Positions 57,182 to 61,150 of a DNA stretch of 64,000 bases are shown piece by piece. The translations under genes were made by a program, and so were the position numbers. The notes under the pieces are model-generated. The model searched no databases. It saw only the letters and a list, made by a program, of their open reading frames with translations, and was not told the origin of the DNA. This DNA is from an uncultured cyanobacterium (GTDB lineage: Bacteria > Cyanobacteriota > Cyanobacteriia > Cyanobacteriales > Nostocaceae). The DNA is taken from the NCBI GenBank assembly GCA_963706595.1, contig OY970166.1, positions 1,440,001-1,504,000 on the forward strand, written 5' to 3'. Each line of letters starts with the position of its first letter. Position 1 is the stretch's first letter.

Positions 57182-57275
57182 ACGCAGAGTCACGCTAAGG
57201 GAAACGCAAAGTAGCGCAGAGCCAGATTCTTCTTTGCGAACCTCTGCGCGAACCTTTGCGAACCTTTGCGTTTAA
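57178..57275. terminator. Inverted arrays of CGCAGAG/CGCAAAG-type repeats between convergent genes (likely bidirectional terminator)
   Basis: TTAAACGCAGAG... facing ...CTTTGCGTTTAA. Confidence 0.55.
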
Positions 57276-57279
57276 ACTC

Positions 57280-57561
57280 TTACTCAACAGATACAGCATC
57301 CACATCAACAGTTTCAGAGCTAGGTTCCTCAGAACCCTGACCAGCCTTCCAAGCAGCGAGGGCTAACCCAGACAGCTCAGAAAATAGCACGGACAACAGC
57401 AAAACGTCATCAATTTGACCGAGAATGGGTATAAAATCAGGAGCAATATCTATAGGGCTGAGAATATAAAGCAGTGTTGCTAAAACTACCCACCAACGAT
57501 ACATGGGATTACGAAGCAAATTGCGATACCAATCGTACAGTAATGGAATTGAAAATTTCAT
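57280..57561 (-). CDS. YkvA/DUF1232 family protein
   Basis: YILSPIDIAPDFIPILGQIDD signature. Confidence 0.93.
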   Translation of the reverse strand: MKFSIPLLYDWYRNLLRNPMYRWWVVLATLLYILSPIDIAPDFIPILGQIDDVLLLSVLFSELSGLALAAWKAGQGSEEPSSETVDVDAVSVE

Positions 57562-57817
57562 GTCTTGATTCTCCAGTTATTTTTAATTTTGACAAATTAT
57601 TTTAGAAGTTCCCGGTAGAAATAACCGCCCCACCTTCTAATTTTACATTTTTGCCCGTATTGTGTTAATTTAATACATATTGCCAACGGTGTTTAAGTAA
57701 TATCCATAAGGTAGAGCGTGATGGTATTCGCTAGTACTGGATGTTTTAAAAGATTTAGATGATTTAGAAAATACCTATATGCAACTTTTGGCTCTATACT
57801 TTTTGTGATTTTCATCT

Positions 57818-58372
57818 ATGGAAGAAACAGTTCACGAATACTTTTTCAGAAACTTTACCGTAGTAACGGCAACTATATCCGCCGCAGATTCCCTTCCTGA
57901 GACATCCGGTATTTATGCTTTCTATCATGCGTTTGATTTTTTAGAAAACAACTTGTCTGAGTATATAGATACTCGTATAAAAAATACAGTATTTAAAACA
58001 AAGTTCTCTGAGAAAGATAACAGAAGTAAGTTTATTGTCGATACTTGTGGAGAGTCAGTTGGGTTGTCTCCAAAAATGGAGCAATTTATCAAAGCTGTTT
58101 CTCAGCCGAAAGAACGAAGAATTTTAAAAAATCTCCTAATCTCATGTAGCATTCTGCAACGCCCAGATTACATTGGTACTGCAATCAACTTAAGAAATAG
58201 ATTTATTCAGCATTTAGAACGAGACGATGGTTTTTTCTCAAAGTACGCAGAATCAAGGCAGAATGATGAATTTTTATTCATTTGTTTACCTTGCCCAAAA
58301 AACATTTCTAGAGAGTTAGAAAGTCTGTTAATTCAACTATGTCAGCCTAAGTTTAATACACAAAGAAGTTAA
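57818..58372 (+). CDS. GIY-YIG nuclease-like protein with a long insert
   Basis: GIY (aa 31-33), YIG (118-120), NLRNRFIQH, catalytic-type E168, PKFN (N180). Confidence 0.75.
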   Translation: MEETVHEYFFRNFTVVTATISAADSLPETSGIYAFYHAFDFLENNLSEYIDTRIKNTVFKTKFSEKDNRSKFIVDTCGESVGLSPKMEQFIKAVSQPKERRILKNLLISCSILQRPDYIGTAINLRNRFIQHLERDDGFFSKYAESRQNDEFLFICLPCPKNISRELESLLIQLCQPKFNTQRS

Positions 58373-58375
58373 AAA

Positions 58376-59992
58376 ATGGAATTAGATAATCAGTCTCCAG
58401 AGACTATAGAATATAAGGCAATCAGTGGTAACTTTGGTGAGGTTAGGTACTTCATAACAACTCTTGATCAAAGTGATGCCGTTGAAAACCTTAGATTTGC
58501 TGATGATATTCAAGGCAGTTGGAGTTTTTCTGAACGCGTTCAAAGAAAACTAGATGAAAATAGGGCAAATACAGAAATATTCTCTTACCTAGCGCAGGGT
58601 GGAATTCGCTTTTTTAATTCAATTGTAGTCGTACTTTTGCCAAACTCGAATGATCAAAGAGAATTTTGGGACTTCTCTACAGTTAGTAGTCAGGGAAAAA
58701 CTGTTGAAAAATGGGTTAATTTAAAGCTATATAAGAATGTAGCTAGAATTGTCATTGATGGTCAACATAGACTTCTTTCATTAAAGAGACATTGGAATGC
58801 CCATACGGGAAAAGAGCCTTTGAACACTCAACAAATCAAGGAAAATTTCAGTTGTTTAGATACCTTTGATATACCAGTCGTTTATCTAGTGTTTGGAAAT
58901 CTTGGCAGAGTTGGTCATTCAGAGTTAAGCGAAACTGTAAGAGATGAGATAATTAAAGCAACTCGTAATATATTTACAGTTATAAACAAGACTGCAAAAT
59001 CAATTGATAAACAAACTCAATTATTACTTGATGACAGTAAAATATCCGCATTAATTCCTAGAAAACTTTTAGAGGAAGGAGTTCTTGAAGATAGATTCGT
59101 TAAATGGTCTTCCAAATCCCGAAATTTAACGCAATCAGAACCTTACCTAACGACTCTAGACTTGGTGAGCCAATGTACTATTGAACTATTGAAAGATTAT
59201 CCAAAGCAAGCTTTAAAAAAATCATTCAATTCACCAACAGAGCGTAATATTGCTCTGGAAACTTATTATGAATCTCATCCTAAACTTCATGAAATAGGTA
59301 CAAAAGTATTGCTTAAGTGGTTTTTCACTGAACTTCAGCCATTCAAGGATTGGGTATCTCAGATTAGCTACGTAGGTATAAATATTCCTATTCAACCGGA
59401 GCAACCTCGATTAAATGCAAGTCAAAAAGCAAGTCTAAAAAAATTACGAGAGTCCAGCATTTTGTATACTGTTCTAGGGCAAAAAATTCTTTTTTTCGCT
59501 ATTTCACGCTTCTTGCTTGGAAAATTAAGCGCGGAGTATCGTATTCCAAAAACTCTTAACGCCATCTCCCTTAGTATTACTAAAATGGATAAAGATGGTT
59601 TTTTCGGACGAGATCAATCTCATTGGTCTCATGTTCTAGTGGGGACAAATGAAAACCTAACCATAATAACTAGAGGATCTGGATATGAGAAATGTATAGA
59701 ACTTATTAGAATGATATTATCTAATTCCTCTGATGGCGTGAGAGAATTGATAAAGCGTACTAAAGAAGATGTAAGCAATGAGGTTAACTGGAATGAAAAT
59801 CAGATTTCCACTTGGAGAAAAGATTTTCATGTGATATTACCTGAAGTGGAATTCATTGATGAGCAGATAAAGGAATCTTCTCAATCAGATGACTCCTTTG
59901 CTGAAGTTCGAGATTTGCTTGACTCTTCTGAGGAGGACGAAGAGGAATCTGATGAAATTGAAGATGATGAGGATATTTTTAAAGAAACTTGA
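58376..59992 (+). CDS. DGQHR-domain (DndB/ParB-like) protein with an acidic C-terminal tail
   Basis: VQR (55-57), FFNSIVV, IDGQHRL (DGQHR at 128-132), FTVINKTAK; Asp/Glu-rich end. Confidence 0.85.
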   Translation: MELDNQSPETIEYKAISGNFGEVRYFITTLDQSDAVENLRFADDIQGSWSFSERVQRKLDENRANTEIFSYLAQGGIRFFNSIVVVLLPNSNDQREFWDFSTVSSQGKTVEKWVNLKLYKNVARIVIDGQHRLLSLKRHWNAHTGKEPLNTQQIKENFSCLDTFDIPVVYLVFGNLGRVGHSELSETVRDEIIKATRNIFTVINKTAKSIDKQTQLLLDDSKISALIPRKLLEEGVLEDRFVKWSSKSRNLTQSEPYLTTLDLVSQCTIELLKDYPKQALKKSFNSPTERNIALETYYESHPKLHEIGTKVLLKWFFTELQPFKDWVSQISYVGINIPIQPEQPRLNASQKASLKKLRESSILYTVLGQKILFFAISRFLLGKLSAEYRIPKTLNAISLSITKMDKDGFFGRDQSHWSHVLVGTNENLTIITRGSGYEKCIELIRMILSNSSDGVRELIKRTKEDVSNEVNWNENQISTWRKDFHVILPEVEFIDEQIKESSQSDDSFAEVRDLLDSSEEDEEESDEIEDDEDIFKET

Positions 59993-60381
59993 TAACCACT
60001 ATTGCTAATGCGATCGCTATTCCCGCAGAAGGAAATGATTTCAAACCTTTCTTTCAGCGATGTGGCAAATGTTACTCTATCAAAGAACAAGATGGTTGCT
60101 CTATGTGCGGTTAGCCGATAAACCCAGCATTGACATTGAACCCTTTGCTATCCCTCACTACAGACAAACAATTCTGGCAACATTACCCATTAGCACTGAA
60201 CTGTTATCAGAATTGAAAATCAAATGCTCTGCCCCAGGTAGTATGGAAGACGCTAGTGTTTATCTGTCGTTAAATATCTGTCCGACGATTTTGTATAAGA
60301 ATATGGTAATCATGCATTAATCTTTAAAATTAAAATGCTTTGGGATTGTTGCTGTAGAAGTGGAGGGAGGAAACCTAACCA

Positions 60382-61150
60382 GTGGATATTTTAGATTTGT
60401 TTGAAAAGGGCGGGCCAGCCATGTGGCCCTCTGCTTGTCTTGTCAGTGCTGTCGATCAGTGTGATTTTCGAGCGCCTGTGGTTCTGGTTGCGAATCATGA
60501 CTCAAGAAAAGGAAATAGTGGATCGTGTCCTCAAAGCTGCCCAGGATAGTTGGGAAGTAGCGGCGAATATTGCCAGAAATGCCAGCCATCAGCCTGTGGG
60601 ACGGTTTCTCTATGCCCCCTTAAGCTACCCGAAACGTGACCCAGAAACCTTTCGACTAGCACTGGAGTCCACCGCCGAAGATGAATTAGCAGGAATGCGC
60701 CGGGGTGAAAAACTTTTAGAAGCCATAATCGCCCTCTCACCTCTGTTGGGATTGCTGGGGACAGTTTTGGGTTTAATCCAGTCCTTGCGTTCAATTCGCA
60801 TTGGCGATTTGGGAACCGAATCTACTGCTGGTGTGACTACTGGTATTGGTGAATCTTTAATCAGTACTGCTACTGGATTGATAGTTGCGATTATCAGTTT
60901 GGTCTTTTATCGTCTATTCCAAAGTTTTGTAGTTGACCAAGTTAAAATTTTTCGCAAAGCGGGAAATGAGATGGAATTGTTATATCGTCAGTCTCCGCCT
61001 GACTATGACAAAATTGCCTCAGTCATCGTGGAGGAATCTTCACGAGAAAGTGCTGATCCTCCCCGCAAGCGAGATAAAAAACTGTTTCCTAAACCTCCTG
61101 AACCCACGAATACTCCTGATTCCTTAGATCCTGTAGATCCTGAGAAATAG
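60382..61150 (+). pseudogene. exbB: MotA/TolQ/ExbB proton channel protein with an apparent +1 frameshift at 60427-60429
   Basis: GGAGGGAGG then GTG at 60382 reads VDILDLFEKGGPAMWP. The body (LLVLSVLS...PLLGLLGTVLG...GIGESL) is in another frame; removing one C from CCC joins them. Confidence 0.75.

Follow-up and report, generated by a model that had tools for sequence, protein, structure and literature searches.

The stretch of DNA considered here (the window) spans 64,000 nucleotides (nt), positions 1,440,001 to 1,504,000 of contig OY970166.1, and belongs to the 5.57 Mb single-contig genome of an uncultured cyanobacterium of the family Nostocaceae. Between a DUF1232 gene, which we take to be ykvA, and exbB it carries a cassette of two genes, encoding a GIY-YIG nuclease and a DGQHR protein of the DndB superfamily and parted by a gap of 3 nt (Table 1). 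An original prediction, made from the letters alone, had read this pair as a candidate defence system in which a sensing subunit gates a nuclease effector. Its description of an AT-rich pair set between these flanking genes was borne out, the GC content of the cassette being 34.6% as against 41.3% for the genome (within the lowest 3.3% of equal-sized windows). The interior is also free of highly iterated palindrome 1 (HIP1) sites, as had been noted, but with 1.7 expected (P0 = 0.18) their absence is not significant at this single locus; across 16 related copies, which are not independent of one another, none was found inside as opposed to 26.6 expected from the flanks. The HIP1 density of the genome and the names of its homologues suggest a heterocyst-forming cyanobacterium as the host.

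All of the catalytic-type residues assigned to the first protein were located, namely G31-I-Y33, Y118-I-G120, R128, H132, E168 and N180, and Y33, Y118, R128, H132, E168 and N180 are invariant in 27 aligned nuclease sequences (the query and 26 of its 65 homologues). The match to Pfam GIY-YIG reached 21.5 bits, just under the cut-off of 22.6. A structural model with a predicted local distance difference test score (pLDDT) of 76 places the protein in the GIY-YIG fold, with VIA matches to the GIY-YIG domain of UvrC (1ycz; Z 10.1, root-mean-square deviation 2.3, 85 residues aligned), T4 EndoII (2wsh; Z 9.4), I-TevI (1ln0; Z 8.2) and PD-T4-3 (Z 6.7), compared with Z 4.1 for the best unrelated row. 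Foldseek returned no match to this model at E <= 0.001, and PADLOC gave no match for either cassette protein. The two motifs of GIY-YIG proteins are usually separated by about 10 residues; the spacer here, which went unmentioned in the original prediction, is of 84 residues and is read as an insertion because the GIY-YIG fold aligns across it. The insert is modelled as helices and a hairpin (pLDDT ~55-80) and has an isoelectric point (pI) of 9.0.

The second protein bears the motifs ascribed to it, QR at residue 56, DGQHR at 128-132 and FxxIN as FTVIN at 200-204, and none of QR, DGQHR and FxxxN varies across 26 aligned DGQHR proteins with identities down to ~25%. It passed the cut-off of the DndB family PF14072 (41 bits against 29.1) and fell just short of that of TIGR03187 (58.2 bits against 58.85), with TIGR03233 (dndB) absent among its NCBIfam matches. 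By hhalign it was alignable with canonical DndB over residues 12-276 (probability 96.5), as opposed to a probability of 25.5 with the DUF262 protein that occupies the same chromosomal slot in congeners (see below). No match to PF03235 (DUF262/GmrSD_N) was obtained in it at E <= 1, none to PF07510 (DUF1524) or HNH in either cassette protein, and none in a PDB sequence search with it. The model (pLDDT 83) consists of an N-terminal domain, a basic helical part and a disordered acidic tail. When VIA was applied to the whole 538-residue model, residues 18-207 gave matches, each weak, to PadC (Z 6.5), sulfiredoxin (Z 5.6), KorB (Z 5.4) and SspE (Z 4.6), the ParB/sulfiredoxin (Srx) members among the top rows spanning Z 3.6-6.5 with none above 8; the top Foldseek row was BrxU (E 0.023, weak) and none reached E <= 0.001. 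A ParB/Srx fold is predicted for this domain. According to the available part of PMC12065111, motifs of the QR/DGQHR/FxxxN type in DUF262 proteins are located at the nucleotide site, and the helical domain that follows in DndB, GmrSD and SspE is called a DNA-binding domain, a role that may by analogy carry over to residues 221-493 of the DGQHR protein, which are helical (mostly at pLDDT ~90) and have a pI of 9.1.

The acidic tail (pI 4.05), likewise seen as predicted, occurs mainly in the cyanobacterial branch and is absent from most distant members. The C-terminal half, searched as part of the whole model, gave no clear structural match, which is no sign of a new fold because this half was not folded alone, and the Atlas returned only unnamed or weakly DndB-labelled clusters for it, at 0.91-0.92. 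A HEPN RNase site in this half, the search for which was prompted by the accessible part of PMC3632139, was rejected: the stretch RDQSHWSH looks alike, but neither histidine is conserved across the 26 aligned proteins, and the alignment columns 405-421 yielded no conserved HEPN RxxxxH.

Conserved co-occurrence of the two genes had been set beforehand as a test of the prediction. A scan of species genomes recovered 30 loci in 28 genomes, cyanobacterial save one labelled "uncultured bacterium", and the nuclease gene lies directly upstream in every locus that retains the start of the DGQHR gene (23/23) and in 25 of all 30; the remaining five are 3' halves of split genes, lie at a contig edge or are C-terminal remnants. 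The gap between the genes is 2-3 nt in all 15 intact copies, whose median ratio of nonsynonymous to synonymous substitution rates against the window copy is 0.13 for the nuclease and 0.16 for the DGQHR gene; both genes are under purifying selection. The mobile character suspected of the cassette was corroborated by its sporadic presence (the DGQHR gene in 2 of 401 cyanobacterial genomes, the nuclease gene in one of 11 genomes of the genus) and by flanks that vary widely. The pair moves and persists as one unit. The neighbours are mostly housekeeping genes, and PADLOC matches at 1e-10 were obtained for only 7 of the 78 scanned, most of them to generic domains; the cyanobacterial copies therefore do not lie in large defence islands. 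Identities of the two genes are correlated over 16 copies (rho 0.71, Mantel p 0.002), which is not counted as co-evolution because it is expected of any linked genes. As a side observation, eight loci (L015, L017, L019, L027, L029, L030, L032 and L036) have nearby a gene from one sequence cluster, the scanned member of which is a type IA topoisomerase (Toprim + Topoisom_bac), this gene being directly downstream on the opposite strand in most of them; the eight probably represent a single insertion site that they share in Nostoc.

What speaks most strongly for a defence role is guilt by position, namely the pattern of replacement at the slot itself. Homology with congeners ends at ~57630 and resumes at ~60196-60272, and in 10 congeners the slot holds DUF262+HEPN pairs (four), AriA+AriB (one), an OLD/GajA-like ABC ATPase of 896 amino acids (one), a PIN_8 gene (one) or a Rieske gene (one), with nothing in another, where ykvA is absent too, and a rearranged neighbourhood in the last. 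The DUF262+HEPN pairs match PD-T4-2_A of PADLOC at E 1e-48 to 6e-51, with PD-T4-2_B in three of the four, and the AriA+AriB pair is PARIS-like (E 5e-24 and 5e-27); both PD-T4-2 and PARIS figure among the anti-phage systems in the available part of PMC10952713. In this genus the interval between ykvA and exbB acts as a small hotspot of cassette exchange, and the defence-type context proposed from the pair alone recurs there. Since the pair travels as a unit and occupies a slot of anti-phage-type genes, it is likely an unnamed defence unit, and a system directed against phages or other mobile DNA is the likely overall role.

That the pair is selfish or homing-like, or serves as an accessory of DNA repair, and spreads by its own nuclease would agree with the occurrence of GIY-YIG domains in homing endonucleases and UvrC and with frequent gain and loss, and is nevertheless considered very improbable: neither a target gene nor terminal repeats nor HIP1 boundaries are conserved, the nuclease was not matched on the plasmids or viral contigs searched, and the slot is common to defence cassettes. 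HIP1 sites, repeats, promoters and terminators were all considered as boundaries of the cassette and set aside as not conserved or not above chance; a single congener junction falls on a HIP1 site (Table 1), which marks no conserved boundary in the other 15 copies.

Table 1. Features of the cassette and its surroundings, in positions of the window.
Feature	Position	Strand	Basis
Variable slot between ykvA (DUF1232) and exbB, cassette-filled here	57631..60217		Congener homology breaks and cargo differing among 10 congeners
GIY-YIG nuclease gene, 184 amino acids	57818..58372	+	Y33, Y118, R128, H132, E168, N180
84-residue insert, nuclease residues 34-117, candidate partner- or DNA-binding part	57917..58168	+	Spacer length, model, pI 9.0
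DGQHR (DndB-superfamily) protein gene, 538 amino acids	58376..59992	+	PF14072, TIGR03187, model
Domain with predicted ParB/Srx fold and NTP binding, residues 18-207; QR, DGQHR (58757-58771), FxxxN	58427..58996	+	Motifs, weak fold matches
Basic helical domain, residues 221-493, candidate DNA-binding	59036..59854	+	Model, pI 9.1
Acidic, largely disordered tail, residues 494-538	59855..59989	+	22 D/E, 3 K/R; model
HIP1 site, 18 nt past DGQHR-gene stop codon	60010..60017		Homology with congener L116 restarts exactly here
Left flank: DUF1232 (ykvA) gene	57280..57561	-	PF06803, 52.8 bits
Right flank: exbB	60382..61150	+	PF01618
NTP, nucleoside triphosphate.

Around the cassette, exbB has a single additional base near 60430 when compared with all 10 congeners, which shifts its 5' end and is probably an assembly error, and an 86-residue open reading frame (ORF) at 60060-60320 had no Pfam match. 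A short repeated element of the CTTTGCGAAC type, in three copies with an inverted arm, lies at 57202-57273 between a large glycoside-hydrolase-15/phosphorylase-kinase-like gene and ykvA, and many similar copies exist in congeners.

Decay of the cassette bears on how the two proteins may act on each other. Both genes are intact in 15 of the 28 genomes and one genome was not judgeable; the 12 broken cassettes comprise an intact nuclease gene with a broken DGQHR gene (five), the reverse (one, L015), both genes broken (three), DGQHR remnants without a nuclease (two) and a DGQHR gene interrupted by a transposase and lying at a contig edge (one). All six key nuclease residues are kept beside the broken partner in L016, L027, L028/36, L032 and L033/34, several of these genomes being metagenome-assembled and L032 keeping an in-frame C-terminal half, and the ratio of 5:1 is near expectation from gene lengths. 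There is moderate evidence from these decay classes that the nuclease may be inert on its own. A toxin-antitoxin or abortive pair, in which a constitutively toxic nuclease would be held inactive by the DGQHR protein until infection, perhaps by way of the acidic tail of that protein, gains from the tight two-gene coupling and from the charge of that tail against the basic insert; the available parts of two papers add that in CMoRE a loop of negative charge is inhibitory (PMC12923530) and that stand-alone URI nucleases at Dnd boundaries are proposed by Rakesh et al. as suicide back-ups (PMC10853773). Such a pair should, however, leave almost no cases of an intact nuclease beside a broken partner; the five genomes found therefore weaken this reading, and with the tail absent from most distant members it is judged unlikely. 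Of the two branches offered by the original prediction, a sensor gating a nuclease is supported and the toxin-antitoxin branch is weakened.

Beyond the cyanobacteria, a search for DGQHR homologues among 1.84 billion representatives gave 579 matches at E <= 0.001, including full-length relatives (465-524 amino acids) with 28-38% identity. The distant set comprises at least 48 loci from a metagenome scan, a viral scan and four annotated records, and the counts given for it hold among the matches listed. A nuclease hidden Markov model (HMM), for which 14 upstream ORFs matching Pfam families of GIY-YIG type served as seeds and which scores the window nuclease at 4e-15, matched 34 of 1401 ORFs, 33 of them directly upstream and one directly downstream of a DGQHR gene. 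With at least 450 nt of upstream DNA available for 55 of the 63 DGQHR ORFs, 33 of the 55 are preceded directly by a GIY-YIG gene; when three rows of the window's own clade and two duplicates are left out, the fraction is 28/50, 14 of the 28 being seeds of the HMM.

A quick tree computed from the DGQHR domain only, with 75 rows (five duplicate or own-clade rows being left out, no approximately unbiased test), unites the window protein with the 465-524-residue relatives at a Shimodaira-Hasegawa-like approximate likelihood ratio test (SH-aLRT) support of 98. The branch with annotated dndB is separate (SH-aLRT 100) and shows a nuclease in none of its seven scorable genes, and the DGQHR gene of the host's own dnd locus also falls outside the branch of the window protein. 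Among the matches listed, all 15 GIY-YIG-DGQHR dyads with a spacer of 76-108 residues fall in one larger branch (SH-aLRT 88) and all 14 dyads with a spacer of 9-23 residues in another (SH-aLRT 91). Spacer length thus co-segregates with the DGQHR branch (15/15, 14/14), and there therefore appear to be two co-diverged dyad subtypes, insofar as aligned sequences and a quick tree can tell.

Only two distant members of the window protein's own branch come with context among the matches listed, L054 and L057, the latter with 402 nt upstream. In L054, the one distant orthologous locus among the matches listed that has both genes, a long-insert nuclease (hhalign probability 95) is followed by the DGQHR gene and then leads on into dndCD; this operon of 22% GC (L054:245-7584) comprises the long-insert pair, a ParB-like gene (PD-Lambda-5_A match), an unassigned 316-residue gene, dndC and a dndD-like gene. 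Other arrangements were seen in passing. Dyads of both subtypes lie on one 9-kb contig with transposase genes between them (L071:569-8921), and in L091:1-2381 the order is reversed, a DGQHR gene preceding a GIY_YIG_2 gene. In a prophage-like viral contig (L096:7527-11184) a short GIY-YIG gene and a 411-residue DGQHR gene form a pair in the midst of accessory genes, with an MrcB_N-HNH gene two genes downstream. DGQHR genes of 650-690 residues are followed by a gene of 350-420 residues in L071, L078, L079, L083, L084, L085, L089, L090 and L094; the latter has almost no Pfam matches (one weak Csm6 HEPN) and is often near dptG/H-like or dnd genes.

The absence of dnd genes alluded to in the original prediction is true of the window, where no match to dndC/D/E, sspB/C/D or dptG/H was found in the 64 kb, and the same genes went unmatched in all 30 cyanobacterial loci, so that homologues do not always sit in complete dnd clusters. 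The host genome nevertheless carries a dnd cluster at ~4.76 Mb, ~3.3 Mb away, with dndC, dndD, dndE, a DGQHR gene of its own and a PbeA/PbeC-like part. There dndC (L007:13013-14616, ~4.763 Mb) and a PbeC/CxC-type ATPase gene (L008:642-2715, ~4.771 Mb) are each split into two ORFs by shifts of frame. Independence from Dnd, as first proposed, was not supported: dndC is present elsewhere in the host and in 28/28 carrier genomes, and of the 14 non-cyanobacterial long-insert dyads listed, 10 lie beside dnd/ssp-type genes (one cysteine desulfurase only, one a weak dndD). For both subtypes together, 17 of the 28 non-cyanobacterial dyads listed lie near such genes (two cysteine desulfurase only, one a weak match), a count for which some query sequences came from the same distant loci.

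One way to read these links is that the cassette is left over from a dnd system or is an accessory displaced from one, a DndB paralogue that would regulate phosphorothioate (PT) genes together with a passenger nuclease devoid of its own defence role. This would accord with DndB as the closest curated family, with L054 and the many distant dyads in dnd/ssp clusters, with a remnant (L038) that adjoins PbeA/PbeC-like genes and with the broken state of the cassette in 12 of 28 carriers. We nonetheless hold it to be quite improbable: purifying selection acts on the intact copies, which occupy many unrelated sites, the protein lies outside the nuclease-free branch of annotated dndB and draws no TIGR03233 match, and the host already has a DGQHR gene at its dnd locus.

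A sensor-gated defence nuclease, whichever its trigger, is the probable nature of the pair. The more specific version that we favour, tentatively and with less than even confidence, is a PT-linked anti-phage system in which the DGQHR protein gates the GIY-YIG nuclease. The DGQHR protein would bind NTP and DNA, read a DNA mark, most likely the host phosphorothioate laid down by the unlinked dnd operon, and, in a complex with the separate nuclease, switch it on to nick invading DNA; the whole would amount to a split SspE/DndI/GmrSD with GIY-YIG replacing HNH. The fused DUF262-HNH proteins SspE, DndI and GmrSD/BrxU are the model for such gating (PMC10952713, PMC11662687, PMC4619093, each available in part), the DUF262 domain of SspE recognising PT, hydrolysing NTP and activating its nickase (PMC10952713). 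It is from this analogy that we infer NTP hydrolysis, DNA binding, physical contact, activation in preference to inhibition, an anti-phage role and the trigger.

Several observations weigh against a PT-linked, DndB-type gated system. The distant loci were found with a DGQHR pattern that itself favours dnd regions, the two spacer branches come from a quick tree with SH-aLRT of 88 and 91, all fold matches of the DGQHR model are weak (Z up to 6.5), and NsnA (Menshen) outscores PD-T4-2_A on the slot's DUF262 genes. The presence of dndC in 28/28 carriers is uninformative because dnd is near-universal in the family (dndC in 10/10 of the family and 154/201 of the order, dndE in 77/80 of the family), and co-occurrence with dndC or dndE was accordingly set aside as PT evidence. 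PT genes are missing on the available DNA, many contigs being short, for 11 of the 28 distant dyads listed, among them those on 17 kb of prophage DNA (L096) and on 11 kb of plasmid DNA (L100), and co-location with dnd/ssp in defence islands need not be functional. The dndC region shows only 95%, 82%, 82% and 71% DNA identity in four congeners (L124-L127), which suggests an exchange of dnd alleles within the genus; the marked sequence may therefore vary, and a free cassette would have to tolerate this. Finally, the host dndC is frameshifted in the assembly. This frameshift is plausibly an assembly error because an extra base of the same kind is present in exbB, and it was likewise set aside as evidence for PT independence; the best-matching public DNA run is from another strain, in which the dndC break is not covered, and no RNA sequencing runs with the cassette were listed.

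The same sensor-gated nuclease might instead be independent of PT and respond to a modified base specific to phages, as GmrSD/BrxU do, or to some other sign of infection, for instance a shift in the NTP pool, the nuclease being released on phage or host DNA in the manner of PD-T4-2, Dazbog and Menshen. We regard this as possible, with confidence well short of even. It would explain the lack of dndCDE/ssp genes in 30/30 cyanobacterial loci, the replacement of a DUF262+HEPN pair at the same slot and the dyads of prophage and plasmid stretches without PT genes; a GIY-YIG enzyme that cuts 5-hydroxymethylcytosine DNA also exists (PD-T4-3/CMoRE; PMC12923530, available in part), to which the nuclease model shows VIA Z 6.7, and BrxU is the top, albeit weak, Foldseek row of the DGQHR model. 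Against it stand the 10 of 14 distant long-insert dyads listed beside PT-type genes, the lack of a single carrier without dndC (0/28) and the sensor itself, which by hhalign is of the DndB and not the DUF262 type.

The cassette is outside every named system compared, even if the kind to which it would belong, a ParB/Srx NTPase with a nuclease effector, is already known. As described in the available parts of PMC10952713, PMC11662687 and PMC12065111, SspE (SspABCD-SspE) and DndI (IscS-DndBCDE-DndI) resemble the pair in combining a nuclease with a helical middle domain and with an NTP-binding domain of the ParB/Srx fold, the latter as predicted for the pair, that bears QR/DGQxR/FxxxN motifs, and, like the dyad family, are linked to PT systems; each is one DUF262+DUF1524 (HNH) polypeptide beside modification genes, whereas the pair consists of two genes, with a DGQHR domain of DndB type and a nuclease of GIY-YIG type, and has no modification genes close by. 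GmrSD/BrxU have, as predicted for the pair, an NTP-dependent ParB-like part and a nuclease without cognate modification genes, and two-gene forms exist (PMC4619093, in the part available), but they combine DGQQR/DUF262 with HNH, as opposed to DGQHR/DndB-type with GIY-YIG and no Pfam GmrSD match. PD-T4-2, Menshen and Dazbog are likewise small operons of a ParB-like (DUF262) gene and a separate effector, and a PD-T4-2-like pair sits in the same slot in 4/10 congeners; their effectors are HEPN or an OLD-type ATPase set in place of GIY-YIG, and the sensors are only remotely related. DndB of DndABCDE shares PF14072, the same motifs and the alignable region, yet it has ~360 residues against 538, and the DGQHR protein forms a separate branch, is not beside dndC and stands always behind a GIY-YIG gene.

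Among GIY-YIG systems, PD-T4-3/CMoRE is an anti-phage nuclease with a GIYxY motif and an acidic inhibitory loop, but, going by the available part of PMC12923530, a single protein to which a modification-sensing domain is fused, with no partner of the ParB/Srx type and no sign of the 84-residue insert. Rakesh et al. (2024; PMC10853773) reported URI (GIY-YIG) genes beside Dnd clusters and proposed a back-up effector; the main text available describes neither a mobile pair that stands alone nor a coupling with a second gene of the DGQHR type. Likewise, the term GIY was not found in the available texts of PMC12839542, PMC12914056 and PMC12065111, the accessible part of bioRxiv 2024.10.26.620412 deals with single-gene GIY-YIG systems only, and the pair was not found described in the literature on DGQHR/DndB/Ssp/PD-T4 with GIY-YIG, a search within which few subscription papers fell.

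For the genus, the ykvA-exbB slot is worth mining as a small defence hotspot. For the wider family, the pair would extend the range of effectors under the control of ParB/Srx NTPases to GIY-YIG and would give a function to the non-canonical DGQHR proteins that databases label "DndB". The DndFGH restriction module was reported in 806 of 3416 taxa with a Dnd-neighbouring endonuclease (PMC10853773, available in part). Many Dnd-modification genomes thus lack DndFGH, and the stand-alone dyad offers the simplest construct for telling a restriction arm from an independent system. A bolder and rather doubtful extension of the PT-linked reading is that of a plug-in effector of PT immunity, roaming free of PT operons through defence slots and using the host mark in trans, the branch having been able to leave PT operons because almost every heterocyst-forming cyanobacterium already dnd-marks its DNA. 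If this were true, the pair would count among the restriction arms that Dnd/Ssp systems are missing, and the 84-residue insert would be a docking part co-evolved with one DGQHR branch.

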